From an uncultured Acidobacteriota bacterium (GTDB lineage Bacteria > Acidobacteriota > UBA6911), in contig CAWJKZ010000021.1 of NCBI GenBank assembly GCA_963843575.1, forward strand, positions 288,001 through 352,000: a stretch of DNA of 64,000 bases, given 5' to 3'. Both the position numbers and the translations under genes were made by a program. The stretch's first letter is position 1; every line of letters starts with the position of its first letter. Below the pieces are notes generated by a model. The model was not told the origin of the DNA. It was given only the letters and a program-made list of their open reading frames with translations, and did not search any database. Positions 14,082-49,843 of the stretch are shown here, one piece after another.

Positions 14082-14861
14082 TCAGCCGCAGGAGGCGGCG
14101 GGCAGGGGTTCGTCCAGAACGAAGTCCTCACCGAGGTAGAGTTGGCGGACCTCGGGGGCCATGGCCAGGTCCCGTGAAGGGCCGTGCCTAAAGATCTTTC
14201 CCTCCGCGACGACATATACGTCATCCGTGATTCGCAGAGTTTCCCTCGCGTTGTGATCCGAGATCAGGGTACCGATCCCGCTCTCCTTCAGGCGTAGAAT
14301 GATCCGCTGGATGTCCGCGACGGCGATCGGATCGATGCCGGCGAACGGTTCATCGAGAATGAGCAGTTTCGGGGACAGCACGAGGGCGCGGGCGATCTCG
14401 GTGCGCCGCGTTTCTCCTCCTGACAAAGCGCTGGCCGGGGCCTGTGCGAGATGCAGGATGTTCAGGTTGCCCATCGCTTCGATCATCCGGCTGCGTCGCT
14501 CTCCGGCGGTCAGCCCGGCCGATTCGAGCACGGCGAGCAGGTTCTGCTCCACCGTCATTTTCCGGAATATCGAAGATTCTTGCGGAAGGTAGGCGATACC
14601 TGCCCGCGCCCGCTGATACATCGGAAGATCGGTAATATCGGCACCATTGAGAACCATCCGCCCGGCTGTAGGAGGAATGAGACCGATGATCATGTGCAGG
14701 ATCGTCGTCTTTCCCGCGCCGTTCGGTCCGAGCAGCCCCACTATCCTGTCCGACGAAAACTTCAGGTCCACCCCCCTGACCACCTTGCGGCTCCCGTACC
14801 GCTTTACCAGGCCGCGTGCGCTGACCTCGAGTTCGAACGGGACTGCGGCGGGTCGGGTCAT
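14082..14861 (-). CDS. lptB: LPS export ABC transporter ATP-binding protein
   Basis: GLLGPNGAGKTT, LPMYQRARAGIAYLPQESSIFRKMTV, LSGGE.RR.EIARAL, LDEPFAGIDP, DHNARETL, YLGEDF. Confidence 0.9.
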   Translation of the reverse strand: MTRPAAVPFELEVSARGLVKRYGSRKVVRGVDLKFSSDRIVGLLGPNGAGKTTILHMIIGLIPPTAGRMVLNGADITDLPMYQRARAGIAYLPQESSIFRKMTVEQNLLAVLESAGLTAGERRSRMIEAMGNLNILHLAQAPASALSGGETRRTEIARALVLSPKLLILDEPFAGIDPIAVADIQRIILRLKESGIGTLISDHNARETLRITDDVYVVAEGKIFRHGPSRDLAMAPEVRQLYLGEDFVLDEPLPAASCG

Positions 14862-15000
14862 CGGGCGCCCGTCGCGCCGAAGTAACTGAAGTCCTATGCT
14901 CCACATCCGTCCAACCGTTTCCAGCAATCCCGCTCTCCGTCGGGGAAGAATCTCCTCACCAGTTAGATACGGACGCGGGACCGTGTGATTACCGGCAATC

Positions 15001-15015
15001 GTAAAGATTTGCAAA
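15001..15015. promoter_or_regulatory. Candidate CpxR-type box
   Basis: GTAAA-GATTT-GCAAA is a 9/10 match to the E. coli CpxR consensus GTAAA-N5-GTAAA and lies 140 bp upstream of lptB. Confidence 0.4.
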
Positions 15016-15399
15016 AATCCCTGCTGCACGGCCTCTCGCCTGGAACAAATGTCGTCGGCGCCGTATCAACAGGTGGCTGGAGAAGGGAGAAGCACAGAGC
15101 CACGGTCCAACGCGGTCGCCGGGAACGTCCGCTCCGCGGCTCAGAAGATCGGGAGGACTTGCCAGCCGCCTCCAGACGCACCAGTGGCGGTCCAGGAGTT
15201 GCACAGCTGCAAACGGGATCAGGACGGCCGCCATGCTGAAACTGCAGATCAACCAGCTGGGGAATTGCAGAATCGGTTTGTCCTCCCCTCCCCGCAAAAA
15301 GGAAGGAGGACTCGGCGCACGCGGAGCCTGACAAGCAGAAGTGCTCCGCGTGCCGCCGGTTGACGTACTTTACCTATCATCAGCGAGGATCGAGGACGG

Positions 15400-16296
15400 G
15401 TGGTCGACGGAGACGATGTACTTAGCTCCATTCTCGACAGCATCCACGTGCGGGCCGTCACGGCACAGAGAAGTACCTTCACCGCGCCGCAGGTTCTCGA
15501 CCGTGAGCCGGATGCGGCGACCCTCTACGTGGTTCTCCGCGGCAGCTGCAATCTCCAGGTGGAAGGACAGGCTGCGTCGCACTCTCTTCAGAGCGGCGAT
15601 CTCGCCCTGCTCCCGCTGAAGACGCACCACACACTCTCGATCGAACCGGAATGCCGCGAGGGACGCGAGACTGAGGGTATCCTGCTCCGGGTCACCTTCA
15701 TCTGGGAAGAAGGTGAGAGCGACCCGATCTCGTCGATGATACCGCCCGTCGTCGTGTGCCCGGCAGGTGCCGGCCCCCTGTCGGACTGGCTGCTCCTGAC
15801 GCTCTCTCTTATCGACCGTGAAACCACGGAGCCTCGCCAGGGGATGCAGATCATGCTCAGCCACCTGGCCCGGATCATCTTCGTCCACGCGATCCGAAGC
15901 TGCCTGCCCGTAACAAAGAGGTCGGGCAACACGCTGCTGGACATGATTGCGGACCCGCAGATCGGCCCGGCGCTGGCCCTCATCCACACGCGTCCGGAAG
16001 AGCCCTGGTCGGTAACGTCGCTGGCCAGAACGAGCGCTATGTCCAGATCCGCCTTCGCCTCGAGGTTCGTCGAGGTCACGGGGCAGCCTCCGATGCAATA
16101 CGTGCTGGTACAGCGGATGCGGAAGGCCTGCGCGTTGCTGCGGGAAACGAAGCTGAGCGTGAAGGCGATTTCGGATCAGGCGGGTTACAGCTCGGAGGCC
16201 GCTTTCAGTCACGCCTTTAAAAAGTGGGTAGGGATCTCACCTGTAGGATACCGGGCGTCCAACTGCTCCGAGAAGAGCCAGGGACGCCCGGCATAG
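15400..16296 (+). CDS. AraC-family transcriptional regulator (cupin plus HTH, RclR-like)
   Basis: DPQIGPALALIH..P..PWSV..LA....MSRSAFA.RF and GYSSEAAFSHAFKK motifs. Confidence 0.9.
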   Translation: MVDGDDVLSSILDSIHVRAVTAQRSTFTAPQVLDREPDAATLYVVLRGSCNLQVEGQAASHSLQSGDLALLPLKTHHTLSIEPECREGRETEGILLRVTFIWEEGESDPISSMIPPVVVCPAGAGPLSDWLLLTLSLIDRETTEPRQGMQIMLSHLARIIFVHAIRSCLPVTKRSGNTLLDMIADPQIGPALALIHTRPEEPWSVTSLARTSAMSRSAFASRFVEVTGQPPMQYVLVQRMRKACALLRETKLSVKAISDQAGYSSEAAFSHAFKKWVGISPVGYRASNCSEKSQGRPA

Positions 16297-16300
16297 CGGA

Positions 16301-16843
16301 TCAAGCCTGTGTGTTGATGCCGTTCGTTGTGGCCAGGCTGCTGAGTACATTCAGCGAGGAGTCTTCAGACTGCTGCTTCTGCCTCGAGGCCTCCAGCTCA
16401 CTCTCGAACTTCTGCACGTCAAAACCGTTGGCCGCAAGCAGCGATTCGATTTTGGACATGAATTCGTCCTTGCCGCCGGCTCCGCCCGGCCCGACGGGTC
16501 CCTGCCCGCCTCCCTGAGGAGGGGGAGGTGGCGCCTGACCCTGCATTTTGGACTTGTCGACGCCGTTTTGGGCCATCGTCGTGTCGATCGCGGACTTGAT
16601 CGCCTGCATGATTTCGTCGGCACTGCTCGACTTGTCCAGCTTCGCCAGCGCAGTTGAAATCGCCGCATCGATCTTTTCCTTGAGCTTATCGACCCCGTTC
16701 TCATTGCTGCTCGTCTCCGAGACTTCACTGTCCGAACCGACCGACAGCGCAGAGGTGGACGTCTGTGTCTTGCTCGCCACCAGCTCCAATAGAGAGGTGT
16801 ACGAGCTTGACTCCAGCCAATTAATGCTTCCCAAACTAGACAT
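16301..16843 (-). CDS. Hypothetical Ser-rich helical protein with a PPPPP/Gly linker
   Basis: ATG after a GGAG RBS; 180-aa ORF with coherent composition; no family recognised. Confidence 0.6.
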   Translation of the reverse strand: MSSLGSINWLESSSYTSLLELVASKTQTSTSALSVGSDSEVSETSSNENGVDKLKEKIDAAISTALAKLDKSSSADEIMQAIKSAIDTTMAQNGVDKSKMQGQAPPPPPQGGGQGPVGPGGAGGKDEFMSKIESLLAANGFDVQKFESELEASRQKQQSEDSSLNVLSSLATTNGINTQA

Positions 16844-17009
16844 ATGCACTCCGATGATTGGGTGAGGTGCTCGGCCTGCCGGCGAATTAACGGCCGGCAG
16901 CCTGTCTCCATATCGGAGAGATGTCTTGCGAACAAAATGCGAGGAACTCCAATTGCTTTGCGCAGGCGTATCTGTCGTGCGATGTGATGGCTGCGCCCGA
17001 CGCGCGGCC

Positions 17010-17107
17010 TTGAGTGCGGTGCCTCGGCTCGGCCCGCAACATGTCACCGATCCTGCCCGGCGCCGAGGCGCCGCGTTTACTGCGGCGGCCAGCCGCCGCA
17101 CTCCAAA
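17010..17107. repeat. REP-like palindromic element
   Basis: GAGTGCGG...CCGCACTC ends with internal GC hairpins; the same architecture occurs at 36116-36225. Confidence 0.65.
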
Positions 17108-17128
17108 GCGCACACGACAGATCGAGAG

Positions 17129-20100
17129 CTAGTCGGGGATGACCATCGGCGGAAGCGCCGCCATGTAGCTGTAACCGTCGTCGTGCATCAGGCCGAAGGC
17201 GTGGAGGGAGCGGTCCGACCGGATCCGGATGTACCCGTCGAGGCGGGCCGGGAGGCCGGGGAAGAACCCGGTCAGGTACTCGGCTGTCCGGGTGCCCGGC
17301 GCCAGCGTCCGGGTCACCGACCGGTCCAGCGTGCCGTCGGGATTCCAGAGCTCGACGGTGTAGCTGGCGGTGTCGGCGTTGACATTCAGCAGTGCGATCG
17401 CTGTTTTGTAGCCGCTCGAATTTGCCGCCGAAGGAATAACGAACTCCCGGAGCGGTTCGCCGGAGAGCTGGAAGCTTGTCAGGAATGTGCTGGCCGTGCC
17501 GGTATCGAGCAGCCGTTCGTTGGTGAACGAGATCGTGCCCCCGAAATGGTCCACGCTGCTTTCGACTTCGAGCCAACCCGTAGCGATCAGCGCCGAAGTC
17601 ACACCGAATATCGCGGCGAGGTCCAGCTTCAGCTGCTCCCCTGGTGCGAGGTACTGGACATAGGGGAGCCCGATGACCGTCCCATCGGGTTCGTGCGGTG
17701 TGATCGTGAAATCGGCCCCTTCGCCATTGGCATTGATCAGGTTCAGGATTGTCACAAAGCCAGGAGCGATGGCGAACTGAGGTGAATACAGGTGCTTTAT
17801 GCCCCACCGTTGCAAATCGATGCCGTTCAGCGCCGCGAGCGCTCCCTTCGGACCGTAAAACTCGGTCATGAGGAGGCCGCCCGTCGAGGACATCCGGTAA
17901 TAACCGCTTTCCGAGGACTCCGCCTGCAGTAGAGTCGCGGTGTGGGAGCTGCGCACGTCAGTCAGTTCCTCGGTTTCGGTGAAGGTTCCGTAATCCGGGT
18001 CGTACACTTCGGCCGTATCCAGGCCATCCTCCTCGTCCTCGTCGAAGCCACCCGCGATCAGCACCTTTCCGTCTTTGAGAAGCGTGGCCGTGTGGCTGGT
18101 GCGGGGAGAGTTCATCGTGCCGGCCGCCTCGAAGGCATTCGTGTCAGGATTGAAGCTCTCGACGGAATCGAGGGAGACGGAACCGTTCGTACCGCCGGTG
18201 ATCAGGACGCGGCCGCTCTCGAGGAGCGTCGCCGTGTGCGACGCGCGCGCATCGATCAGGTTTCCGACAGTGGTGAATGTCCCCTTCATCGGGTCATAGA
18301 GCTCCGCCGACGCCAGGTATTCCCCGTTGTAGCCGCCCACAATCAGGACCTTTCCGTTTTTCAGACGTGTTGCCGTGTGGAGGGACCGGGCGACGTTCAT
18401 TGGACCCGTGAGATTGAAGTTGTCGCGGGACGGGTCGTAAAGTTCCGCGCTATTCGTCACGGTGCTGCCGTCAGTCCCGCCGGCCAGCAGGACTTTGCCA
18501 TTTACTAGCAGGGTCGCAGTGTGCGAATCCCGCCCGGCAGTCATCGGGCCCGAAGTAAGGGTGAACACGTCATTGTCGGGATCGAATATCTCGGCAGTGT
18601 CGTTGATACCATCCGAGCTTTGACCTCCCGCGATCAGCACGCGGCCGTTTGATAGCAGGGTCGCGGTGTGGCGCACCCGTTCGACGTTGAGAGAACCCGG
18701 GGTAGTCGTGAAGAGTTCACTGTCCCCCTCTTTGTCGTCGGGATCATAGGTCTCCGCGCTCGCGAGGATGTCGTTCGCGTCCTTTCCGCCGGCGATCAGT
18801 ACCCTGCCGTCCAGCAGGGAAGTCGCCGTATGCCCTTCTCTCCTCGCATTCGTGGTGTCGGACGCTGCGGAAAACGAGTTCGAACTCGGTGAGAAGATCT
18901 CCGCGGAATCAAGCGTCGCGGACGACCGGCGCCCGCCCACGATAAGCACGTTCCCCGACGCCGATCCGGTCGTCGCCGCCGAAACCGTTTCGGACGCGCG
19001 ATTGGTCGGATAGGAGACAGTGTCGTCGGCAGTCTTTATCGAGACGCCCTGCATCGCTTTGCGAGACGAGTCATAAGCCAGCTGGTTGTAGGCGGGGTTT
19101 ACAAAGTTCAGTTCGGCGGTATAGTCCTTTTCATCCTTGTCGCCATCGCCGTCAAGGTCCTTGCCGTCCCGCGAGACTTCGGGAGCAATCCACTCGTAGA
19201 GCGGCTTCCGGAAGAGCGGAAACCCGTCCATTTCGTCCATGGCGTACCCGAGCCAGGTCGCCCTGACGCGGCCGGTCGAGATGTAGCCGACCACCTTCGG
19301 TTCGTCCGTGTTGACGGCCAGCCAGCCGGTCTTCTCGGTGTAAGGATCGAGTCCGAAAATCTGGTCGACCGTCGATGCGTACTGCCCGCGTGCCGGTATC
19401 GTAATTTCTACCGGGTCCGTGATGTCGTCGCCCTCCAGCTCCGATCCGTAGTTATCGTAGGCATAGATCTTAACTGCAGCTGGCTGGTCAGAGAGGTTGA
19501 TCAGGGTGAGACCCGTGAACCGGTCCGTGGAGCTTATGTACTTCGTTCCGGCGATCCGATTCGTGCTCCTTAATAGCTCGATCTCGCCGGCGACAAAATC
19601 GAGAACGGCGAGCACCTGTCCATTCGGAGCCAGCGCCACCGTGGAGGGCTGATCGACGGCGTAGTTCGGATCGTCACCGACCAGCACTTTGCCGCAGACC
19701 GCGAAGCTCGTCAGACTCTGCTGGTAGGCGCTGTCGTCGTCCGAAGACGCGTAGTACGCGTACGACGAGTCCGGGGAGAATGCGACGTTGGCGGATCCCA
19801 CGGTGTTGGTCCCTGCCGTCGGCGCCTCGAAAGCAGCTCCGGGATCGTAGGTCGGAACGATCGTCAGGGTAGCCTCGTTGTGAATGACCCAGTTCAGCCC
19901 GTTGGGGGCCAAGGCGGTAAAACCGGGCTGTGTTCCTGCGCCACGCACGTCGAGGACTTCGCCTGTCGCCGCCTTGAAGACCATGAATTTGCCGGCAGCT
20001 GAACTGTCGCTGCCGTCCCGGGAAGCGACGATGGCCACTTCGCCATCCTTCGATAGCACGACGCTATTGAAGATCGAGAACGTCGCATAGGAGGTGTTGT

Positions 20101-21829
20101 CGGTCCCGCTGGCCTTCTCCACCTCGTCGCGCACTTTGATGGTGTACTTCTTTGAAAGGCTGCCGGCGTCGATGCACACCATCTCGTTCGCATTCGTATC
20201 CAGGAGGAAAAGAAGTGCGCCGTCAGGAGATGTGGTGATCTGAGCCGGGGCCAGGAACCCGGTCACCCGCGCCAGTTCCTTCCCGGAATCCACGGAGAAT
20301 TTGATCAGCTCACCAGATCCGGTCGAAGAGATGTAGCCCACGGATCCGTCCGGAGAGAGCGTCAACCAGCTGCCGAATCCGAACGTCGCCCCCGTGAAAC
20401 TCCAGGTCGCCTTTACCCGGTAGGTTTCCATGTCGACGACGAAAATGCGGTTTTCCAGCGCCGAAACAATGGCCAGCGTCCTGCCGTCCTTCAGCAGCGT
20501 CATCAGGGCGGGCTTGCCCCCCGTGACGATCCGCTGCAAGGTTGCGCCGGTCTCGGCCGAAAACACCAACACGGCGCCGGAGCCTGTGTAGGGCACAAAC
20601 CCCCGCCGCGAATCGGCTGAGAACAAGATGTTGGGGGAAACGTTGTCCGTCTGGTCCAGGTTGAGATCGAATTCGAGCGGAAGCGCGTTCTGGCCTCCGG
20701 AGAAGAACAACGTGCCGTTACCGAAAACCGTGATCGCATGCCCGATCCGGGCAGAGGTCATGCTTTGGCCCGGTGAAAACGTAGCGGTCGTGGGATCGTA
20801 GATTTCGGTGGTCGCGAGCGCACCGTTGCCGCTGTTACCGCCGGTCACTAGAATACGGCCGTCGGGGAGCGCTACCGCCACGTGCATGTACCGTGCCGTG
20901 CTCATCGACGCGGTCGCGGAGAATTCCCTCGTATTGGGGTCCCATACCTCGGCAGTGCTGAGGAAACCATCCTCGCTGCGCCCCCCCGCGATAAGCACTT
21001 TGCCGCTCGGCAGAAGGGTTGAAGTGTGTCCGAGCCGTTCGATTGTCATGTCGTTGGCGGTCGAGGTAAACGTGCTGTCGTCCTCGTCGTCCGTACGGTC
21101 GCTGTCCGGCTCGAAGGTTTCGGCCAGATCCAGGACCGAGCTGACGTCGCGGCCGCCGGTAATCAGGACCTTACCGTCCTGTAGCAGCGTTGCCGCATGG
21201 TCCTGGCGCCCGACGGCGAGCGATCCGTCGGTGGCGGTGAACTTCCCGGAGACAGGGTCGTAGATTTCAGCGGTGGCCGAATAGTTCGTCCCGTCGTAGC
21301 CCCCGGCGATGAACACGGTGCCGTCCTTCAGCAAAGTCGCGGTGTGCCCGGTCCGGTAGGCGGTCATGTTCGAAGAGGTCTTCTTGAACTCTCCCGTGCC
21401 GGGGTCATAAACCTCGGCGGTGTCGAGCGGTTCCCCGTTTGTCCCGCCGGCAATCAGCACTTTGCCATTGGAGAGCAGCGTGGCCGTGTGCGACCGGCGC
21501 TGCTCGTTCATTTCGCCGGTAGCCGTGAAAGTATTGGACGCGGGATCGTAAAGTTCGGCGGTGTCGAGGTAACTTCCGTTGAAGCCGCCCGCGATGAGCA
21601 CCTTCCCATTCGGCAGAAGCGTTGCCGTATGCCGTTCGCGGCCTTCGGTCATCGTTCCCAGAAACTTGAACGTGCCGGCAGCGGGCGAATAGAGCTCCGC
21701 CGTGGTTCCGGCGATCTCGCGGTTCGGGGCGACGCGGGCGAAGAATCTCTGTTGTGCAAAACCCGTGACATATAAAAGAAGGACGATTACACAAACAATA
21801 AGGACTCTGAGTGCGTTCCTGCTAGACAC
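17129..21829 (-). CDS. Large secreted protein: two 7-blade Kelch propellers, a YVTN/YncE-like propeller and beta-sandwich repeats
   Basis: GTG start after GGGAGG; signal peptide; about 14 R..HTATLL.NGKVLIAGG...AE.YDP repeats in two blocks; SPDG-type blades in between. Confidence 0.88.
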   Translation of the reverse strand: MSSRNALRVLIVCVIVLLLYVTGFAQQRFFARVAPNREIAGTTAELYSPAAGTFKFLGTMTEGRERHTATLLPNGKVLIAGGFNGSYLDTAELYDPASNTFTATGEMNEQRRSHTATLLSNGKVLIAGGTNGEPLDTAEVYDPGTGEFKKTSSNMTAYRTGHTATLLKDGTVFIAGGYDGTNYSATAEIYDPVSGKFTATDGSLAVGRQDHAATLLQDGKVLITGGRDVSSVLDLAETFEPDSDRTDDEDDSTFTSTANDMTIERLGHTSTLLPSGKVLIAGGRSEDGFLSTAEVWDPNTREFSATASMSTARYMHVAVALPDGRILVTGGNSGNGALATTEIYDPTTATFSPGQSMTSARIGHAITVFGNGTLFFSGGQNALPLEFDLNLDQTDNVSPNILFSADSRRGFVPYTGSGAVLVFSAETGATLQRIVTGGKPALMTLLKDGRTLAIVSALENRIFVVDMETYRVKATWSFTGATFGFGSWLTLSPDGSVGYISSTGSGELIKFSVDSGKELARVTGFLAPAQITTSPDGALLFLLDTNANEMVCIDAGSLSKKYTIKVRDEVEKASGTDNTSYATFSIFNSVVLSKDGEVAIVASRDGSDSSAAGKFMVFKAATGEVLDVRGAGTQPGFTALAPNGLNWVIHNEATLTIVPTYDPGAAFEAPTAGTNTVGSANVAFSPDSSYAYYASSDDDSAYQQSLTSFAVCGKVLVGDDPNYAVDQPSTVALAPNGQVLAVLDFVAGEIELLRSTNRIAGTKYISSTDRFTGLTLINLSDQPAAVKIYAYDNYGSELEGDDITDPVEITIPARGQYASTVDQIFGLDPYTEKTGWLAVNTDEPKVVGYISTGRVRATWLGYAMDEMDGFPLFRKPLYEWIAPEVSRDGKDLDGDGDKDEKDYTAELNFVNPAYNQLAYDSSRKAMQGVSIKTADDTVSYPTNRASETVSAATTGSASGNVLIVGGRRSSATLDSAEIFSPSSNSFSAASDTTNARREGHTATSLLDGRVLIAGGKDANDILASAETYDPDDKEGDSELFTTTPGSLNVERVRHTATLLSNGRVLIAGGQSSDGINDTAEIFDPDNDVFTLTSGPMTAGRDSHTATLLVNGKVLLAGGTDGSTVTNSAELYDPSRDNFNLTGPMNVARSLHTATRLKNGKVLIVGGYNGEYLASAELYDPMKGTFTTVGNLIDARASHTATLLESGRVLITGGTNGSVSLDSVESFNPDTNAFEAAGTMNSPRTSHTATLLKDGKVLIAGGFDEDEEDGLDTAEVYDPDYGTFTETEELTDVRSSHTATLLQAESSESGYYRMSSTGGLLMTEFYGPKGALAALNGIDLQRWGIKHLYSPQFAIAPGFVTILNLINANGEGADFTITPHEPDGTVIGLPYVQYLAPGEQLKLDLAAIFGVTSALIATGWLEVESSVDHFGGTISFTNERLLDTGTASTFLTSFQLSGEPLREFVIPSAANSSGYKTAIALLNVNADTASYTVELWNPDGTLDRSVTRTLAPGTRTAEYLTGFFPGLPARLDGYIRIRSDRSLHAFGLMHDDGYSYMAALPPMVIPD

Positions 21830-21887
21830 ACATCCCTCCCACAACTGTCAGTCGAAAACACAACCGGACTCTTCAGAACAGCTTGAA

Positions 21888-21943
21888 TACGAGCGCCGGC
21901 GCGTTTGTTACAGGCACGCGTAACAAACGCACCGGCGCGCGTA
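21888..21943. promoter_or_regulatory. Divergent pair of ECF-type promoters GTAACA-N14-CGTA
   Basis: Minus copy 21911-21888 points to the Kelch gene; plus copy 21920-21943 points to bamA. Confidence 0.75.
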
Positions 21944-21967
21944 GTTAGGGGCGTTTCTGGAGGATCT

Positions 21968-24540
21968 ATGCAATTGCTCTTGCTGTGCATGCTGCTGGTG
22001 CCAATGCCGCCGCTCCAGGCCCGACCTGACGACGTTCTGGTCGAGCGCGTGGACGTCCGGGGGAACCGCCGCATCCCGGAGGACACGATTCGTTTTTACA
22101 TCCAGTCCAGGCCGGGCGAACGGTACGACGAAGGGAGGCTGGAGCTCGACCTGCGCGCCCTGTACAAATCAAACTTCTTCGAATATATCGAGATCGACGA
22201 GAAAGACGGCGACACAGGAAAGGTCGTTACCTTCATCCTCCGGGAAAAACCTCTCATCCGGTCGATCCAGTATGCGGGGGCCAAGTCCTTTACGGAATCC
22301 AACATCCTCGAGCACTTCAAGGATAAGAAGGTCGGATTGACCGTCGACAGCCAGTACGATCCGGCCAAGATCCGCACGGCCGAGAGGTCGCTGCGGGACC
22401 TCATGCAGTTGAACGGAAAGCCGCTGGGCACAGTCCGGACCGAGGTAACCAGCGTTCCCCCGTCCGGCGTGCGCGTCCGTTTCGTCCTGGACGAAGGGCC
22501 GAAGGTGCGCATCGGAGCGATCCGGTTTACCGGAAACACGAAGATGAGCGACGGGGCTTTGAAGGACGCGCTGAAGCTGACGAAAGAGCGCAGCCTGATG
22601 AGCCTGTTCAAGGGCACCGACAAGTTCCACGCCGGGAAGCTCGAGGCGGACGTCGAGATGAACCTGAAGGCCTTCTACAAGGAAAACGGCTACATGCAGG
22701 TCCAGGTCGGGCAGCCGATGACCCGCATCTGCGAAGGCCCCCGCGGATTCATCCCCATGCTCCGCAAAACCCGCCTGCAGTACCTGATCGAGCTTCCCGA
22801 TCGACGCCGGCGACCAGTACCGGCTCGGGGACCTGACCCTCAGGGACTGCGGCGCCTTGAAGTGCGAGCCGCTGACGACTCTTTTCGGACTGCACAAGGG
22901 GGACGTGGTCAATTTCAAGCGCATCAAGGACACGCTGGAAGAAATCAAGAAAATCTACGGCGGCATCGGCTACATCAACTGGTCCTATATCCCGGAGCAG
23001 GAATTCGATCAGGCAAGCAAGACGATGAACCTCACGTTCACGTTCCAGCCTGACAAGATGTTCTACGTGCACCGGATCAACTTCAGCGGCAACACGAAGA
23101 CGCGCGACCGCGTCATGCGCCGCGAGTTCCTGCTCGAGGAGGGGAAACTCTTCAGCAGCCGTTTGCTGGACATTTCCGTTTTGCGGCTGAACCAGCTCGG
23201 GTTTTTCGACAAGATCGAGGAGAAAGACTACGATCTCAAGACGAACGACAAGGATGCGACGGTCGACATCAACCTCAAGGTGAAGGAGAAGAGTCAGCAG
23301 TCCATCGGACTGACGGGCGGCGTCAGCGGAATCTCGGGCAGTTTCCTCGGGGTGAACTACGGCACCAACAACTTCCTGGGCAGGGGAGAAAGCCTGGAAG
23401 TCAGCGTCACAGGCGGAACACGCTCGGCCGGATCTCATGCTTTCGTACAGCATACCCTACTTTCTGAACACCAGGTGGACGATGGGTATTTCCGCCTACA
23501 AGATGCGGTACCGGTACGACACCTACACGATGTACGGTATGACCAGTTACTCGACCGGACATCCCGTGTCCCTGTTCACCCAGCACACGACGGGCGCAAC
23601 CTTGAACGTGGGGCGCCCGCTCGGCAACACCTTCTGGCGCCTGGGAGCGAGCTACACGTACCAGAGCATCGGGATCGGGGGAATTGCATCGGGGTATGAA
23701 TCCTTCGCCCTGGGACAGCTCGGTGGGGAGCACTCCGAACGGCGACACCCAGAAGGCACTAAGCGGGATCATCCGGAGCGAAATAACGCCGAGCCTTTCG
23801 TTCAACACGACGAACAGCTACTTTATGCCGACCCGCGGCAAGAAGTCTGAACATCGCGATGGGAGTCGCCGGCGGAATCCTCTCGGGCGACTACAAGATC
23901 CTGCGCCCCTCGGTCGAATACCGCCACTTCGTCCCGGACCGCTGGATCAGCCACCGTCGAAATACGCTTGGATTCAGGCTGTTGGGTCAATATATCCGCT
24001 CCTACGGCGGCTCGACGATCCCGTTCTATGAACGGTTTTTTGTAGGCGGGGAGACGACGCTGCGCGGTTTCGACCTTCGTTCCATCAGCCCTATCGCGAT
24101 CTCCTCTACATACAAAAACGATCTGTTCAACAACACGTCGATCGACCCGGTCACCGGCTTGCTCAAAATCGACAAGAGCATTATCTCGATCGGAGGCGAT
24201 TCGCTCGGGCATGGGCAGTGCGGAGTACCGGATGCCGATTGCCGGTCCGCTGTCGATGTCGCTGTTCGCGACGTAGGGGTGAACCGTGTCTCGCACGTCA
24301 AAGGGATCGGGAAGTTCGGGGACAACGACGGTCGATCTCGTCGGCGCGACCAACACCGTGCTGCGCAGTTCGACGGGGATCGAATTTCAGTTCGTGCTTC
24401 CGATGGTGAACGCGCCGTTCCGCCTGATCTTCGCGGTGAACCCGAACAGGTGGGACGGAGACATCGCGCTCGGCACGAACGTACTGCATGCGCACGAACC
24501 GAGCCACGACATCAAGTTCACAATCGGCCGCACATTCTGA
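21968..24540 (+). CDS. bamA: BamA/Omp85 outer-membrane assembly factor paralogue, broken by about 7 frameshifts (pseudogene or assembly errors)
   Basis: Five POTRA-like units (GNRRIPEDTIR; GNTKTRDRVMRRE), NNFLGRGE, ERFFVGG..LRGF and terminal FTIGRTF, spread over successive frames. Confidence 0.88.
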
Positions 24541-24542
24541 GC

Positions 24543-24585
24543 CACGGATTCACACGGATCCGCGTGGAATCCGTGTGAATCCGTG
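24543..24585. terminator. Inverted repeat between convergent genes (possible bidirectional terminator)
   Basis: CACGGATTCACACGGAT...ATCCGTGTGAATCCGTG; no U-tract. Confidence 0.5.
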
Positions 24586-24591
24586 TCCCGG

Positions 24592-27500
24592 CTAGAATTC
24601 GAAGCGGAGGCCGGCCTGGAGGTTTCGGGGAGTGCCCTGAATCGTGGAAATCTGGCCGAAGCTTGCCGGTGTCACAAGGTTTGTCTCGGGCAATCCGAAA
24701 TTCGTGTGATTCATGACGTTGTAGGCTTCGGCTCGAAGCGCGAGGTGGCTCGTTTCGCCGAGGCGGATACGCTTTGTGAGGGCCAGGTCGATGTTGAAGT
24801 ACCTGGGCCCGAGAAACGAATTCCTCCCGGAGCTTCCGATCGAGCCTGCCTCGGGGAACGTGAACTCAGCCATCGAATCGGCGGAGAAGTAGTACACTCC
24901 ATCCGAGGTCCTGTAGATCTTCCCCTTGGCGCCGCTGCCGTCGTAGTCCGCATAGGTTGTCGTGTCCGCCCCGGCGGTGCGCCGACCAGAACTGATCGAG
25001 AACGGTTTGCCCGCCTCGTAGACCAGCAGAACACCCGCATCCCAGCCACCAAAGAGGGCGTCCATCCACTTGGGGCCTGAGCTCAGGAGCCAGCGGTTCT
25101 TCCCGAAAGGCAGCGAGTAGACGGCGCTCACATTGAAGGCGTGGGGCCTGTGGAAGTCACTGCGCGCCTTGTTCAGCCCCACGTCGAAGTTGTCGATCGG
25201 GTTCGAGAAACCGTTCCCCTCGGCTGAGGTGTTGTCCATCGACTTGCTCCAGATGTAGTGCGCATCCAGCAGCAGTCCCTCGCGTCGGTGGCGCAGGTTC
25301 ACCTGCAGGGAGTCGTACCAGGACCGGCCGGCGTTCGTGCCGTAGATCAACTGGTTGAACTGCGGGAAGTTCCGGAGATAGAAACTCGACATAGGCCGGC
25401 GCCTCGATAGCGGCTGTAGTAGTTCTTGTCTACGGTGTCGGCGGCCGTGCCGGCCTGTCCCTGGTCGATGATGCTTCCGCCGATCGCATTAATGGCCGCA
25501 TTGGCCGAACCGAACATCTTGACCAGGGTGTTGGTCGAGCTGACCGGCGTGCCAATCGCTCGAAACGACTGCAACTCGCGAAAGGCTTTCAGGAAATCCT
25601 CCTCGATCCTGGGCTGGTTCAGATCGACGTTCATGTAGAGCTTGATTCCCCTGCGTTCCGACGTAGCCGGCTTCGAGAACGGTGTCACTCCGGATCTGGC
25701 GTTGGAGGGTGAGGGCAAATTGATGGACATAGCCGGTGCGCAGCTTCGGATTCAGCACGGCGACCGACTCGGAGCGCGTCACCGACGGCGTCATGTCCGG
25801 CGAAGATCTGGGCGACAGGCTCGGGATTCCGTCGCTCAACCGCACATCCTTTCCCCCGGTGTTCGGATAGGAGGTTACGGTCTGGGAGAATCCCGTCGTG
25901 TAAGCGTCGACGGTATTATTGACTGCCCCTGACAGGTGTTCGTAGTAAAGCCCGTAGCCTCCGCGCAGTACGGTCCGTCCGCTGTTCTTCGGGTTCCAGG
26001 CAAAACCGAACCTCGGGGCGAAGTTGTTGACGTCCCGGGCATACCAGTGCTTCGTCGTCTCGATCTTGAAGTTGGAGATCTGGGAGACAGCGTCGATGCT
26101 GGACGCCTGATCGAGGGTCGCCTGCAGACCGCTGCGCTCGGTGGGCATCGCGCCAAGCTCGTATCTCAGCCCGAGGACGACGGACAGATTCGTGCGAACC
26201 CGCCAGTCGTCCTGAAGGAATGCGCTGTAGGCCCTGCCGTTGTAGGTCCGTTCTCGTTTCGTCCCGGCATCTTTGAATTCCTCGAGATCGCTGTAGAACG
26301 TCTGGGTAACTTTGTCCATACGTCCGAGGAGATCATTGTAAAGACCCTCGAACCGCTGCCTGTCGGCCGAGCTGATCACGGCGGTCCCCACCGGACCGAT
26401 ATTGCCGGTAGGAGTGTTTCCGTTGTCCCGCGCGAACGTCACGTTCGGCCAGGTCCCTTCGTCGGTCGACGAGTTCAGGGTCGTCCACGCGAACTCCACA
26501 CCCGACCGGAAATAGTGGCGGCCCCGCTGTGTCGCGGCGAAGTCGTTTGCCTGGATGACCCGGTTGTCTCTTGCCTTTGCGAATGCCGGGCTCAGCGGAT
26601 CAGTCCAGCTGTTGGACAGGAGCATGGCGCTGTTCTGCCGCCCCGGACGCAGGGAATCGAGCCAGCTTCTCCGTACGCCGAGGCGCAGTGAATTGGTCCA
26701 TTGCGACGAAAAAGTCCAATCCGAACCGACCGCATGCGAGTAGCTGCGCCCATCGTCGGTTCCGCCCTTTTCCCCCGGATACCGAGACTCGTTTCCGTTG
26801 AGCCAGTCTACGGAGGAGTTCTTATCCCAGTTCATCCGGTAGAAGAGCTGGTGCTTCTTCGTAAGAGCGTGATCGATCCGCACCGTCGCCTGATGGTCAT
26901 AGCTGTTTACCGGACTGTTGAATTGATAGCCTGAGGTGTTCAGATCGTCGCCGATGTCGTCGTTGTTGGGTTCCGGCAGTTTCGCCAGGAGCGTCGCAAC
27001 CTGGGAGTTGATCCCGAGCCTGCGCCTGTCGTTCTTGGCAATGTTGTAGCTCTGCAGATTGCCCGTGTTCGGCGTGTACCACCTGAATATTCCGGTCTTC
27101 GCTTCGGAAGTAAGGACCAGCCGGTTGCGGATCACATCCTGTTTGGTCTTCCTTCCCTGGTAATTGATGAAGAAGAATGACTTGTCGGGAATCACGGCTC
27201 CGCCAAGCGAGACGCCGAACAGGTGCTGGTTGAAAGCAGGCTGGTCGACATCGTCCGCGTTGTTGAAGAAGTTGTTCGCGTTGAACGACTTGTTCCGGAA
27301 ATATTCAAACGCGTTGCCCGACCAGCGGTTGGCCCCGGAGCGGGTGACCATCTCAACATGCGCGCCGGTGCCGGGGCCGGAGATGGGGCTTGACACGCCG
27401 TTCACAACCTGAAACGACGCGATCGAGTCCGCATTGAGGGGAATCGCGGAGAGCCCAAAAGCCGGGGTGAGCGGATCGTTTGCGTCGAGTCCGTCGATCC

Positions 27501-28059
27501 GGAGGTTCGAAGTCGCTTCGCGCGTACCATTCACGCGCGAGTGGCTCTCGTCGCCGGCCTCGACCTGAACGCCGGGCACATATGCGGCCAAGCTGGTGGG
27601 GCGTCGCTCAATCTGTGGCAACGCGACCATTTCCTGAGAATCCATACGCCCGCCCATCACAGGCTGCGGGTCGGTCAGGATCGGCCTCACCGTTGTTGCG
27701 ATGGACGCGCCCGGGTTGCCCGGTTCCAGATGGAACCGCTGGAACGAGGTCGTCCCGGCCTCTACCACTACGCCGCTGCGCACTTCCGACCGGAAGTTCG
27801 GGGCTTGCACCGTTATCGTGTATTCACCGGGCGCAAGCGTCGCAAAAAGGAAGACTCCGCCTTTGTCTCCCGTGATCTCGACGGGTTTCTTCATATCCTC
27901 CCGGGCCGCCAGGATGTGGCAATCGGGAATTCCCTCACCCGACGGGTCGAGGACCGCACCCTCCAGGCGTCCGACCGAATGCTGACAATAAACCGGCAAT
28001 GAGAGCAGGGCGATGACCAGGAATGAAATCGCGGCAGCAGACAATAGTCTTGAAAGCAT
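24592..28059 (-). CDS. Oar-like TonB-dependent receptor with a carboxypeptidase-regulatory-like domain; frameshifts near 25650 and 25395
   Basis: AGGAGGA RBS, signal peptide, EYFRN..NANNFF, QDDWRV, NNFAPRFGFAW, terminal PR.LQAGLRFEF. Confidence 0.88.
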
Positions 28060-28094
28060 GAAAGCTCCTCCTGTTGATACCTGTGCGTTCTGAG

Positions 28095-28193
28095 TACGCA
28101 GGAGCAGGGGGGTGTTACGGACCGTGAACAAAAACTTCCAATCCCGCCGGCAGGCTGTACCACCTGTCTGTAACATCCGCCGCCAATTTCGTA
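28095..28193. promoter_or_regulatory. Second divergent pair of ECF-type promoters GTAACA-N14-CGTA
   Basis: Minus copy 28118-28095 points to the TonB-like gene; plus copy 28170-28193 lies just before the sigma factor ATG. Confidence 0.75.
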
Positions 28194-28205
28194 CCAATAT
28201 CCGGA

Positions 28206-28805
28206 ATGGATCAGGAGGATGTGACTCTCATCGAGAGGACTCTGCTGGGCGACGAGTCTGGTTTCGCCGAACTGGTGAACCGCTACGAGGCGGCTGTCTG
28301 GAAGACCGTCTACCGGACGCTGGGGCACTGTGCAGATACCGAAGATGCCGTCCAGGAGATCTTCCTTCGTATATTCAAGGCCCTCGCCACGTTCGACCGC
28401 GCTCTCCCCTTCGGCCCCTGGATCGTGCGGATTGCCACCAACTACTGCATTGATCAGTTGCGACGCCGGCAGAGACAGCGGTGCGACTTTCTGCTGGACC
28501 TTTCCGACGCGGAACAGGAACGGGCGCTGGCGGATTTCTCCCGGAACGGCGATTTTCAAGCTCTTCTGGGCAAGGCTCCCGAGACGTACGAGAAGGTCGC
28601 CGAGGCGTTCCTGAACAATCTGGACCCCAAGTACAAAACGGCCTTTGTCCTGAGAGAACTCGAAAAACACAGTTACACGGAAATCGCCGAAGTTCTGGGT
28701 ACGACCCAGGTCACAGCACGTGTGCGGGTTTCCAGGGCGCGAGCTAAAATCCGGCGGAAATTCGAGGGATATCTCTCCGGAGAAGAGTTGGACAGTCAGT
28801 CATGA
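28206..28805 (+). CDS. ECF RNA polymerase sigma factor
   Basis: Region 2 (EDAVQEIFLR, W..RIATNYCID) and region 4 (SYTEIAEVLG....RVRVSRAR) only. Confidence 0.93.
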   Translation: MDQEDVTLIERTLLGDESGFAELVNRYEAAVWKTVYRTLGHCADTEDAVQEIFLRIFKALATFDRALPFGPWIVRIATNYCIDQLRRRQRQRCDFLLDLSDAEQERALADFSRNGDFQALLGKAPETYEKVAEAFLNNLDPKYKTAFVLRELEKHSYTEIAEVLGTTQVTARVRVSRARAKIRRKFEGYLSGEELDSQS

Positions 28806-29242
28806 ACATGTGCAAGTTGCTGGATTCGTATCGGGATGGCGAACTCGCGCCGCGGCAGCGCTCCGAGTTCGAGCTTCACCTGCGATCGTGTCCGCGGTGT
28901 CGGCTCGCGCAGTCGCTCCTCAACAACATCGTCAGTTCCATCAGGGCCGGCGAGCCGGTGCTACCCTGCGGGCTGGCGGAACGCATCGCCAGCCGCGCTT
29001 TCCAGCAAAAATCGACCTGGGAAAGTTACATCATTTCGTGGCTGCGGCCCAAACCGGTATGGGCGGCGGTGGCGCTGTCGGTGCTGATCCTGTCGGGAGT
29101 GCTCGCCTGGCCAGGCAGGACGGAATCAAACGAGATGTACAGTCTCTATGAAAGTCTCTGGAGGAAAAGCACGGAAGGATATTTCCTCCAGACCGAGGAC
29201 GAGTTCATGCGCTGGGTACAGTACGACGGGAGACTGCAATGA
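28802..29242 (+). CDS. Zinc-binding (zf-HC2) membrane anti-sigma factor
   Basis: C...Y.DGEL......FELHLRSCPRC motif and one TM helix; ATGA overlap with the sigma gene. Confidence 0.88.
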   Translation: MNMCKLLDSYRDGELAPRQRSEFELHLRSCPRCRLAQSLLNNIVSSIRAGEPVLPCGLAERIASRAFQQKSTWESYIISWLRPKPVWAAVALSVLILSGVLAWPGRTESNEMYSLYESLWRKSTEGYFLQTEDEFMRWVQYDGRLQ

Positions 29243-29643
29243 ACGAGCGGTTGCGTGCGTTGACAGTGCTGGCGGCAGTTTTTATTCTCGGGTGCCTCGT
29301 CGGCGGCGGACTTTTTTGTGCGTTGTCGTCCAGATTCCTTGCTCGAGAACCCGGCCCGTTCTTCGGGCCACCGCCTCCGCAGAACTGGACGGCGGCGCTG
29401 AAACTCGCGCCCGATCAGGGGGTGAAATTCCGGGAAGTTATGAAGGAGTCGCGGCTGAAAATCGACGTGGTGATGCAGGGAAACGCACCGAGAATGGAGG
29501 CGATCCGGGCCGAGATGAATCAGAAGTTAAGCGCGATCCTGAATGACGACCAGAAAAAGGAGTTCCAGGCACTGGTGCGCAGATTCGAAGAACGCATCCC
29601 CCCTTGGAAAAAGGACCACCCCAGCAATCCCCCGCCCTTTTAG
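29239..29643 (+). CDS. Spy/CpxP-like periplasmic helical protein
   Basis: N-terminal TM, then LKLAPDQ and ILNDDQ (LTXXQ-like) motifs; ATGA overlap. Confidence 0.7.
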   Translation: MNERLRALTVLAAVFILGCLVGGGLFCALSSRFLAREPGPFFGPPPPQNWTAALKLAPDQGVKFREVMKESRLKIDVVMQGNAPRMEAIRAEMNQKLSAILNDDQKKEFQALVRRFEERIPPWKKDHPSNPPPF

Positions 29644-29963: not shown

Positions 29964-31258
29964 TTAGCTCGTCATGGACACAGGCGGCAGGCAACCGGCC
30001 TCATAATTGCCGAGAGATCTTTCGGGTCTCCTTTGGGGGCAGACCGCGCAGTAAGTCCGCCGGTTCAGGTCGAGGCGTGCCTTGCGTGCGGCATTGCGCC
30101 CTTGGTCCAGCTCGCGCGGCACATGATCGTCCCTGCCGTAGTACATTTCATCGGGAGTCTGGCCACGGAATGCGGAGTGGGGGAGCCGCACATTGTGCTC
30201 ATCAACGTAGAACGCCACGAGACGCCGGAGCGTGGAGAGGCTGTCGAGCGAGTTCAGATAGAGCCACTGATGCTTCAGCGTCCGCCACCAAGCCTCGATC
30301 ATTGAGTTGGAGAACCTGAGCTCGGTCAGGGCGATGACGCGGCGCAGCACTCCGGATTGGATGAGCTCGTCGACATTTCGGTTGACGTTTTCCACGCCGG
30401 CGTCCGCCACGACTGTCGGAGGCGCATCTGAGCAGGCGCCGCCCTGTCCCGCTTCGAGAAGGACGGAGATCGTGCTGGCAGGATCGAACTTGTCCGCCAG
30501 CCGCCAGGCCAGAATGCGACGGGAGAAGTTGTCGATGACGGCGTGCAGGAAAGCCTTGCTGCCGTCGAGCAGCCTGATGACGGTCGTATCAATGTGCCAT
30601 ACCTGGTTTGGCTGAGTTGTTCGGAGACCGACCTTGGGCTTGGCAGGATGAACACGTAGGCGGGGACGACGCCAACCGAAGCGGTGGATGAGTGTGTACC
30701 AGGTCGAAGGGGAAGCGAAGACCTTTCCGAGCCGTTGCGCGAGGATGGCGAGGGTTCCGGTTGGAACATGGCGGTACTACTCGGACCTGACCATCTCTCG
30801 AAGTCCGGGGACAGGAGGATCGGTCGTCGAGGCGACAGGCTTTCCGCGAGCTTGTCCACGAATGGTAGCGAGCCGGAGAGAGGCGCAAGAAACGCAGCAC
30901 GGCCCGAAGAGGCAGAAACTGACGAGCAAGGTCGATGGATCGCAGCAGTGAAGCCTTGGCTTTTCCCCCCGGCACGCGCTCGTTGGCCAGGCTGAATCCG
31001 GAGATGCGCAGCAAGACGACGAGGTTACGAAGCAGAGCGAGGAGTTTCCGGATACGCCGTCGGAGCATGAGAACCTCGTGCTGGAGTTCCTGCTCCTTCA
31101 TCGAGAGGACATCGAGGGTGGGGAGATTCGTGAAGCCAGCCCATCACGGTAGACGCGGGTATCCCCAGATCTATGGCAAGGGACGGATCTCGGGAAGTGC
31201 GGACGAGCTCTTTGAGACGGTGGTCATAGGAACGCTGGGGTCGGAGTTTGACACTCAT
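29964..31258 (-). pseudogene. Fragmented DDE (rve integrase-core) transposase
   Basis: HTH-like N-terminal piece; WHIDTT...IDNFSR; DAGVEN; NSMIEAWWRTLK; HN..LPHSAF.GQTPDE. The pieces lie in several frames. Confidence 0.82.
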
Positions 31259-31442: not shown

Positions 31443-31517
<75 letters not shown>

Positions 31518-49220: not shown

Positions 49221-49231
49221 AGAGGAAGCTC

Positions 49232-49739
49232 ATGGCGGGCTCGCAGTCCTTCGACATCACTTCAGGGTGTGACCTCCAGGAGGTCGACAACGCCGTCAAC
49301 CAGGCGCGCAAGGAGTTCATCCAGCGGTACGACTTCAAGGGCGCCAAGGTCTCGATCGACTATGACCGCACGGGCAAGAAGATCGTGCTGCACGGTCCGG
49401 ACGAGTTCAAACTCAAGGCCATGTGGGAGGTGCTCCAGGAAAAGCTGGTCCGCCGGAAGGTCCCGGTGCGGAACCTGAAGCTCGGCAAGGTTCTGCCGGC
49501 CGCCTCCGGCAACGTCTCGCAGGAAGTCACTCTGCAGCAGGGCATCCCGATCGATGACGGCGCGGGCGATCGTGAAGTTCATCAAGGAGCGCAAAGTCCG
49601 GCGCGTGCAGGCCGAGATCCAGGCCGACCAGGTGCGCGTCTCCTCCCCATCGCGGGACGACCTGCAGACGGTCATGCGGCAGCTGCGGGAGCAGGACTTC
49701 GGTCTCGAGCTGAATTTCGGGAACTACCGCACCCTCTGA
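49232..49739 (+). CDS. yajQ: YajQ-family nucleotide-binding protein; frameshift near 49553
   Basis: SFDITS..DLQEVDNAVNQA..E...RYDFKG, then VQAEIQ.DQVRVS..SRDDLQ...F.NYR in the next frame. Confidence 0.9.
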
Positions 49740-49746
49740 ACTGGGT

Positions 49747-49843
49747 CGGGGCTTCAGCCCGGACGCCGTTAAACCCGTCCCAGTCGTTCCGCGCGTGACC
49801 GCCCAAGCCACCGCAAAGAGCGTCCGGGCTGAAGCCCGGACGC
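49747..49843. repeat. REP-like inverted pair
   Basis: GGGCTTCAGCCCGGACGC ... GCGTCCGGGCTGAAGCCC between convergent genes. Confidence 0.7.

Follow-up and report, generated by a model that had tools for sequence, protein, structure and literature searches.

Extracytoplasmic function (ECF) sigma factors are very numerous, and we know of no targets for most of the ECF groups. Promoters with an AAC word in the -35 box and a CGT word in the -10 box are standard for these factors, as is autoregulation. Here we describe a candidate regulon of an ECF sigma factor encoded in a 64-kb stretch of DNA (hereafter the window, G000:C21:288001-352000) from the genome of an uncultured Acidobacteriota bacterium, G000, which comprises 6,684,759 bases in 27 contigs. 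The window contains four exact copies of the motif GTAACA-N14-CGTA, arranged as two back-to-back pairs. Judged from the sequence and from comparison with relatives, these copies are probably the cognate promoters of the adjacent sigma factor and, together with a fifth site elsewhere in the genome, would define a five-unit envelope regulon with a gene context like that of the ECF281 group.

Several described systems resemble parts of this locus. In signalling of the FecIRA type and of the Bacteroides polysaccharide utilization locus (PUL) type, an ECF sigma factor and an anti-sigma factor are combined with a TonB-dependent barrel. The promoter of the Bacillus subtilis SigW type reads TGAAAC-N16-CGTA. 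In Enterobacteria, the targets of sigmaE include bamA, the Cpx system is subject to feedback by CpxP, and BaeSR controls spy. The envelope-stress system BaeSR of Klebsiella switches on the gene of a BamA paralog, bamK (PMC13059784). Boxes of the TGTAACA type at -35 have been published for other ECF sigma factors, e.g., for RpoE7 of S. meliloti (PMC6180224). In the gene context of ECF281, a zinc-finger anti-sigma factor is encoded at position +1 and a PF13801 protein at position +2 (Casas-Pastor et al. 2021, PMC7826278); from this 'heavy-metal resistance' (PF13801) protein at +2, the groups ECF281, ECF290 and ECF291 were suggested to have a link with heavy-metal stress (PMC7826278). In the sensor CnrX of Cupriavidus metallidurans, the metal ligands are His42, His46, Glu63 and His119 (PMC6851896).

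Predicted promoters and their conservation

Sequence searches and genome comparison established the sites, where they are placed, how far they are conserved, and which gene families stand behind them. Among the relatives compared, G001 belongs to the same genus (its sigma factor is 87% identical to that of the window), and G009 represents a third genus. Both assemblies of the genus, G000 and G001, are error-prone metagenome assemblies, and the regulon remains a prediction from their sequences. The features are listed below, with coordinates in the window unless a contig is named.

17129-21844, minus strand: gene for a giant secreted Kelch/beta-propeller protein of about 1566-1571 amino acids (Pfam Kelch_1 1.4e-89, and related families)
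21888-21911, minus strand: predicted ECF promoter of the Kelch gene, left arm of an inverted repeat; exact motif, kept in G001, with an exact motif also ahead of the G009 Kelch gene
21920-21943, plus strand: predicted ECF promoter of the BamA paralog gene, right arm of the inverted repeat; exact motif, kept in G001
21968-24545, plus strand: gene for a BamA paralog with five POTRA stretches and an Omp85 barrel (Pfam POTRA, 3+2 stretches, and Omp85, on fragments)
24592-28059, minus strand: gene for an outer-membrane barrel, TonB-dependent-receptor-like, with CarboxypepD_reg, weak Plug and OMP_b-brl_4 (Pfam)
28095-28118, minus strand: predicted ECF promoter of the barrel gene; exact motif, kept in G001, with exact motifs also ahead of the barrel orthologs of G009, G011 and G112
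28170-28193, plus strand: predicted autoregulatory ECF promoter of the sigma operon; exact motif, ending 12 nucleotides (nt) 5' of ATG 28206
28206-28805, plus strand: gene for the ECF sigma factor, 199 amino acids (Pfam Sigma70_r2, Sigma70_r4_2)
28802-29242, plus strand: gene for a zinc-finger (ZAS-type) anti-sigma factor, 146 amino acids, single-pass (Pfam zf-HC2, 35.3 bits against a cut-off of 22.2)
29239-29643, plus strand: gene for a membrane-anchored Spy/CpxP-like protein, 134 amino acids (weak Pfam LTXXQ; the ortholog profile matches Spy)
G000:C7:10537-10560, outside the window (locus L046): fifth exact GTAACA-N14-CGTA, ahead of a ribosome-binding site, ATG and signal-peptide sequence
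G000:C7:10598-11053, outside the window: gene for a Spy/CpxP-family periplasmic protein of 151 amino acids, the fifth target (Pfam LTXXQ, Metal_resist)

An exact scan of the window returned all four sites that the first-pass annotation of this DNA had reported, with the same coordinates and strands, and no further copy. In 100 dinucleotide-preserving shuffles of the window, the mean number of matches was 0.01, and four matches were never reached (0/100). The same annotation had considered that the motif might be common and randomly placed genome-wide; a scan of both strands of G000 (6.68 Mb) yielded eight exact matches, four of them within the 6.3 kb of the window locus. As the base composition leads one to expect about five chance matches in the whole genome, yet four are found in 6.3 kb, the locus is a strong cluster. 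Three of the four matches outside it lie inside long open reading frames (ORFs) and look like chance, and the remaining one, on contig C7, is located ahead of a gene.

All four window sites are intergenic and directed into a start codon preceded by a Shine-Dalgarno-like run. The distance between site and gene start, given earlier as 12-60 bp, was measured as 12-58 nt. Counted from CGTA, the gap is 12 nt for the sigma factor gene (ATG 28206), 24 nt for the Omp85 gene (ATG 21968), 35 nt for the barrel gene (ATG 28059), and either 58 or 43 nt for the Kelch gene, depending on which of its likely starts is used, GTG 21829 (after GGGAGG) or TTG 21844. A simple sigma-70 scan of both intergenic regions did not find a consensus promoter. 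With the exception of the first pair (21888-21943), the sites have in common only the 10 specified bases and therefore are not copies of one repeat.

The sites are conserved in relatives. G001 retains all four at orthologous places, and the five exact matches in its whole genome all precede orthologs of the five units (5/5). By contrast, the two genomes have diverged in the DNA separating the -35 boxes of the second pair and differ in 7 of the 14 spacer positions of the barrel promoter. For a broader comparison, the best sigma factor match per locus was taken, giving 20 loci from 41 relatives searched, with the window's own locus included. In 14 of the 20 loci (one of them, L018, from G034, which is flagged unpublished), G[AT]AACA-N14-CGTA ends 12-17 nt 5' of the aligned sigma factor start; elsewhere in the 20 loci, about 68 kb, this pattern was matched twice, one of the two matches being the operon promoter of G009. 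Given so short a gap between CGTA and the start codon in these 14 loci, the sigma factor mRNA would be almost leaderless.

In G009, exact motifs stand back to back ahead of the Kelch and barrel genes, 122 bp apart and with unrelated spacers. The operon adjoins them in the order anti-sigma factor, Spy-like protein, sigma factor, with GAAACA-N14-CGTA 5' of it. A motif is thus found 5' of the sigma factor gene in 14 of 20 loci, or 5' of the permuted operon in G009, as autoregulation would have it. In G011 and G112, an exact motif is present ahead of the barrel gene. The evidence from G001, G009 and the 14 sigma loci supports the initial proposal that the motif serves the adjacent sigma factor as its cognate promoter.

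The initial description of the regulon as self-contained turned out to be wrong, since the fifth site, on contig C7, lies ahead of a Spy/CpxP-like gene, and the G001 ortholog of this gene, which likewise encodes 151 amino acids, also has the site (C16:40403-40426, minus strand). Orientation and distance to the start codon are consistent across all five G000 sites. The protein encoded behind the fifth site passes the Pfam thresholds for LTXXQ (62.1 bits against 24.3; 9.2e-17) and for Metal_resist, PF13801 (61.9 bits against 29.2; 8.6e-17), and it matches solved structures of CpxP (E 6.1e-11) and Spy; its signal peptide was read from the sequence. A relaxed scan of G000, with one mismatch and spacers of 13-15 allowed, gave 17 sites with a gene behind them against 14 for a reversed-pattern control, i.e., no excess, and the regulon is therefore claimed at five units and no more.

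Genes behind the predicted promoters

The gene names assigned in the first pass hold by Pfam: Kelch for the giant protein, POTRA and Omp85 for the insertase-like protein, CarboxypepD_reg and OMP_b-brl_4 for the barrel, Sigma70_r2 and Sigma70_r4_2 for the sigma factor, zf-HC2 for the anti-sigma factor, and a weak LTXXQ match for the third protein of the operon.

As is characteristic of ECF (group 4) sigma-70 factors, the sigma factor consists only of regions 2 and 4 (Sigma70_r2, 62.9 bits; Sigma70_r4_2, 55.3 bits) and passes the NCBIfam model TIGR02937 for ECF sigma-70 factors with 102.1 bits against a cut-off of 42.9. Its best named NCBIfam model is SigW, with 113 bits under a cut-off of 209, and its score with the RpoE model TIGR02939 is also under the cut-off (86.4 bits against 236). 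GTG 28221, which has an AGGAGG run, was considered as an alternative start but discarded, since the alignment of the orthologs begins at ATG 28206. The anti-sigma factor gene starts in an overlap with the sigma factor stop. The encoded protein crosses the membrane once, leaving a tail of about 40 amino acids in the periplasm, and its residues C4, H26, C30 and C33 are invariant in 14 orthologs. The start of the Spy-like gene overlaps the anti-sigma factor stop in the same manner; its product is anchored at the N-terminus and contains two LTXXQ-type motifs. Among solved structures, a profile built from 14 orthologs matches Spy (3oeo, E 7.4e-08) but not CnrX, and the residues invariant among the 14 aligned anchored proteins are L54, Q60, R72, L101 and Q105. 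The triad of sigma factor, anti-sigma factor and Spy-like protein was found as a group in 14 further loci, where the reading frames overlap or adjoin. A co-folding prediction for anti-sigma residues 78-146 with Spy-like residues 1-125, made with 14-row alignments, gave a score of 0.00 against a mark of 0.32, which speaks neither for nor against binding.

The barrel protein has strong Pfam matches to OMP_b-brl_4 (2.2e-95 for the N part and 1.2e-67 for the C part; passed with 321 bits) and to CarboxypepD_reg (2.2e-14), and sub-threshold matches to Plug (23.3 bits against 23.9) and TonB_dep_Rec_b-barrel (17 bits against 27). In G000 its frame is broken between about 25392 and 25489, and the gene is spread over at least two frames. 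Another barrel gene with CarboxypepD_reg and OMP_b-brl_4, located at 10347-13313 (plus strand), 4 kb beyond the Kelch gene, has no motif; between it and the Kelch gene are genes for an ABC ATPase (14082-15029, minus strand) and an AraC/cupin regulator (15400-16296, plus strand).

The Kelch ORF is intact and 86-87% identical to its G001 ortholog. The protein has an N-terminal signal peptide, Kelch propellers at approximately residues 60-380 and 960-1340, a middle region resembling YncE/PD40 propellers, and two C-terminal beta-sandwiches; a third similar segment was noted by eye around residues 760-860. Its NCBIfam matches are all sub-threshold, among them the radical copper oxidase GlxA with 125 bits against a cut-off of 800. 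For the C-terminal 231 amino acids (17129-17824, minus strand), the predicted fold (predicted local distance difference test, pLDDT, 89.6) comprises the two beta-sandwiches, matched best, among single domains, by TM1070 (1nc7) and the Anabaena sensory rhodopsin transducer, ASRT (2ii7). In this model the sandwiches appear generic, and no function is claimed from them.

A match to the middle region of the Kelch protein was obtained in 123 of the 137 class genomes and, within the family, in 48 of the 50 other genomes. The Kelch gene is divergent beside a homologous barrel gene in 16 of 20 family loci, and a contig end truncates one of the remaining four. The synteny that the first-pass annotation suggested looking for is thus present for the barrel/Kelch pair in these 16 family loci and for the triad in its 14 further loci; it does not extend to BamA, no homolog of which was found near the Kelch gene in any of the 20 family loci. 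The divergent barrel/Kelch pair, conserved family-wide, is probably the older unit, with the bamA paralog placed between its two genes in this genus.

As to bamA itself, the assignment to the Omp85/BamA family stands (the G001 ortholog at this locus passes the NCBIfam equivalog TIGR03303 with 472.9 bits against a cut-off of 297), but the gene is not the housekeeping one; it is a genus-restricted paralog and is frame-broken in the assembly. An intact housekeeping BamA is encoded at G000:C26:11836-14472, with skp-like and lpx-like genes downstream (ORF translations read by eye), and is 67-68% identical to the window copy, which by this comparison is a paralog. Of 51 family genomes, only G000 and G001 were found to have a second close copy of BamA. 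A tree of 22 BamA sequences (FastTree) places the paralog on a long branch inside the family, beside G014 (local support 0.948), and not as the sister of the housekeeping copy of G000; the backbone support of this tree is low.

Compared with the intact G001 ortholog of 854 amino acids, the G000 paralog has six single-base insertions and lacks one base, which breaks it up into several frames; several of these indels sit in short homopolymer runs. Projected on the G001 frame, the sequence maintains about 89% amino acid identity throughout with no in-frame stop, and its pattern of synonymous and nonsynonymous codon changes resembles that of the intact Kelch gene. Frame breaks are also present in the G001 barrel gene (in a different place), near the sigma factor start of G001, and once in a second Kelch gene of G000 (Kelch2, below). 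The indels are oddly concentrated, with seven in the 2.6-kb bamA paralog against none in the 4.7-kb Kelch gene. Because the coding signal is intact and frame breaks occur in both assemblies, the indels are read as probable sequence or assembly errors.

The same genome contains a paralogous module:

G000:C17:238000-257900, outside the window (locus L030): sigma2, anti-sigma2, Spy-like2, barrel2 and a divergent Kelch2

Sigma2 is 51% identical to the window sigma factor, barrel2 is an intact ORF of 1178 amino acids, and Kelch2 has the single frame break mentioned above; no Omp85 gene was found in this module. At the corresponding places it has GTTACA-N14-CGTA (sigma2), GTCACA-N14-CGTA (barrel2) and GTCACG-N14-CGTA (Kelch2). 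In the whole of G000, GTTACA-N14-CGTA occurs once and GTCACA-N14-CGTA twice. G001 retains the GTTACA site ahead of its sigma2 gene, and neither a barrel nor a Kelch gene was found near that gene within the 20 kb fetched. The region-4 helix reads RGRVCRAR in sigma2 and RVRVSRAR in the window sigma factor, a difference that may explain the changed -35 box of sigma2.

The surroundings of the locus were surveyed as well. The ORF at 16301-17113 (minus strand), just 3' of the Kelch gene, was dropped as a regulon member; it has no Pfam match, and no tblastn match to it was found in 22 Kelch loci. Directly 3' of the sigma operon, beside a tRNA-Asn gene, there are fragments of an insertion sequence (IS)-type transposase (rve_3 match, several frames) at 29964-31101 and 31443-31517, both on the minus strand. 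Farther away, an ORF of 1113 amino acids (46457-49798, plus strand) matches UPF0182 (918 bits) and, behind it, DUF520; it is a fusion, or else two genes are read through in the assembly.

Proposed control and alternative explanations

From its gene content, the system looks like a compact envelope-assembly response in an uncultured soil-type Acidobacteriota genome. The sigma factor would drive five units, namely its own operon, the barrel gene, the BamA paralog gene, the Kelch gene, and the unlinked gene of a soluble Spy/CpxP-like protein. At rest, the anti-sigma factor would hold the sigma factor at the inner membrane. A periplasmic signal, read via the anchored Spy-like protein and the short tail of the anti-sigma factor, would release it; by analogy with CpxP and Spy, the most likely signal would be unfolded or unassembled envelope protein. 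The freed sigma factor would then raise the barrel/Kelch pair along with the capacity for insertion (BamA paralog) and for chaperoning (soluble Spy-like protein). It would also raise its own inhibitor pair, providing feedback.

Several points weigh against this scheme. The identity of the signal and the role given to the Spy-like protein are inferred, by analogy with other systems. The window Spy-like protein reaches only 18.1 bits with LTXXQ, under the Pfam cut-off of 24.3, and has no PF13801 match; as the counterpart of the PF13801 protein at +2 it may tentatively be placed through its ortholog profile, which matches Spy, a member of the same CpxP/Spy/ZraP superfamily. The ECF281 label itself is drawn from gene context and not from the hidden Markov model or the promoter logo of the group. 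The AAC-to-CGT distance is 15 nt, which is 1-2 nt shorter than in promoters with SigW or RpoE-type spacing. Should the frameshifts in bamA (seven) and in the barrel gene (at least one) prove genuine, this strain would have pseudogenes in two of the five units. The motif is absent from all ten barrel/Kelch intergenic regions examined in genus g2, and four g2 genomes have the exact motif at the sigma factor gene and not at the barrel/Kelch pair. Instead, eight of these ten pairs (L086, L088-L090, L095-L098) share the conserved element ATGCGC-N8-TTACA-N13-TTTGTCGATAG, about 100-150 nt from the barrel start. As the g2 pairs have this other element in place of the motif, the link from the sigma factor to the barrel/Kelch pair is, on present comparison, lineage-specific and not a property of the sigma factor clade.

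The same promoters and sigma factor could also belong to a periplasmic metal sensor of the CnrYXH kind, in which the anchored PF13801-like protein would take up a metal ion and pass the signal on to the anti-sigma factor, with the barrel, the Kelch protein and the Spy/ZraP-like protein serving metal handling instead of protein folding. The tentative tie of ECF281 to heavy-metal stress through PF13801 at +2 (PMC7826278), the clear Metal_resist match of the fifth target and the sub-threshold GlxA match of the Kelch protein are compatible with such a function. On the other hand, the CnrX ligands have no counterpart in the anchored protein, and no His, Cys or Met is invariant in the periplasmic part of the 14 aligned anchored proteins, whose profile matches Spy rather than CnrX among solved structures; the anti-sigma factor is of the zinc-finger zf-HC2 type, not CnrY-like; and the regulon includes a BamA paralog and no efflux pump. 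A sensor of the CnrX type was rejected because its ligands are not conserved and the anti-sigma factor is of another type, and we consider metal handling in general an unlikely function of the regulon. Another explanation concerns the first pair of sites. It forms a 56-nt inverted repeat of 24+24 nt, in which the -35 boxes of the Kelch and bamA promoters are 8 bp apart and the arms, spacers included, are identical in 22 of 24 positions in G000 and in 21 of 24 in G001. The spacers contain the palindrome GCGCCGGCGC, which is conserved between the arms and between the two species, unlike the other spacers, that of the barrel promoter among them. The repeat could therefore be mainly the operator of a dimeric regulator, or one acting in addition to the sigma factor, whose role at Kelch and bamA would then be overstated. 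Yet each arm taken alone has the exact -35 and -10 words and the spacing of sites with unrelated spacers (the second pair, the C7 site, and the sigma promoters of orthologs), and the Kelch and barrel promoters of G009 have the same words with unrelated spacers, 122 bp apart. The arm similarity fits an inverted duplication of the Kelch promoter upon insertion of the BamA paralog, which would account for it with no second factor; the conserved palindromic spacer may stem from a recent inverted duplication or serve as a further binding site. Such an operator, as the main function of the repeat or in addition to the sigma factor, is, in our opinion, quite improbable.

It is hardly conceivable that the motif copies have no regulatory meaning and reflect chance or a dispersed repeat. 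Three of the eight G000 matches do lie inside long ORFs, and the reversed-pattern control gave 0-17 matches per genome in the relatives. However, no shuffle reached four matches, orientation and start distance agree at five sites, and the sites are kept at orthologous positions in G001, in G009 and in 14 of 20 sigma loci while the flanks diverge; a dispersed repeat is further contradicted by the limitation of the common bases, outside the first pair, to the 10 specified ones. Both possibilities were rejected on the shuffles, the G001 conservation and the 14 sigma loci. A bolder version of the envelope-assembly response may also be considered, in which the triad senses the outer-membrane assembly load and drives a dedicated line, the BamA paralog being specialised for insertion of the large barrel and the barrel holding or exporting the Kelch protein at the surface, with the second module insulated by the one-base change in its -35 box. 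We regard this version as speculative and rather unlikely; if true, Acidobacteriota would have a new surface system of barrel plus cargo, equipped with an insertase and a chaperone of its own.

Comparison with described systems

For a sigma factor with an ECF281-like context, a compact and conserved set of five promoters could thus be predicted from sequence in an uncultured lineage without genetics. The target set would tie a candidate sensor, the anchored Spy-like protein, to a stress-type BamA paralog, a soluble Spy/CpxP-like protein and a pair formed by a barrel and a giant propeller protein. It may help to find out what the abundant CarboxypepD_reg barrels of Acidobacteriota do, and the natural paralogous sets of sigma factors and promoters (GTAACA versus GT[C/T]ACA) could serve as orthogonal parts.

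With systems of the FecIRA and PUL types the locus shares an ECF sigma factor and anti-sigma factor that adjoin, and would control, a TonB-receptor-like barrel together with a partner surface protein. It differs in that neither an anti-sigma factor of the FecR type nor an N-terminal signalling (STN) domain on the barrel is present in the Pfam tables of these two proteins, and the candidate sensor is an inner-membrane Spy-like protein; a FecIRA-type system was rejected on the absence of the FecR and STN families from these tables. The likeness to SigW consists in the -35 AAC and -10 CGTA words and in the GAAACA variant found in orthologs. Here the spacing is one base shorter, the anti-sigma factor is not RsiW-like, the host is diderm, and the score with the SigW model is below the cut-off.

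The first-pass annotation did not recognize a described system in this combination of genes. In one respect it should be corrected, as the layout with the sigma factor, a zinc-finger anti-sigma factor at +1 and a PF13801-type protein (here the Spy-like candidate) at +2 has been published as the ECF281 context (PMC7826278). Among the matches listed in a literature search for ECF281, only this classification paper was found, and its accessible text gives no regulon, whereas five target promoters are predicted here, none of them of a metal-resistance gene. The other part of the statement stands as far as we searched: a limited literature search found no description of an ECF regulon consisting of a barrel, an Omp85 paralog, a Kelch protein and a Spy-like protein. 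The locus also resembles CnrYXH of Cupriavidus metallidurans (ECF20/ECF291), where an ECF sigma factor is likewise combined with a small single-pass anti-sigma factor and an anchored helical sensor of the CpxP/Spy/CnrX kind, and where the operon is autoregulated with a second target promoter nearby (PMC6851896). The anti-sigma factor of the window is, however, a zinc-finger protein and not of the CnrY type, the CnrX ligands are not conserved, the gene order differs, and the targets resemble envelope-biogenesis genes rather than an efflux pump.

The envelope stress responses of Enterobacteria are similar in that a periplasm-sensing regulator raises the capacity for outer-membrane protein insertion together with a protein of the Spy/CpxP family, in that a member of this family within the regulon may feed back on the sensor, and in that a stress-inducible BamA paralog exists beside the housekeeping copy. 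In place of RseA/RseB or a two-component system, the Acidobacteriota locus has an ECF sigma factor with a zinc-finger anti-sigma factor and an anchored Spy-like protein, and its predicted regulon is very small and includes a barrel/Kelch pair with no assigned function. The proposed response would thus be a counterpart of BaeSR-bamK and Cpx-CpxP in Enterobacteria, built on another type of regulator.

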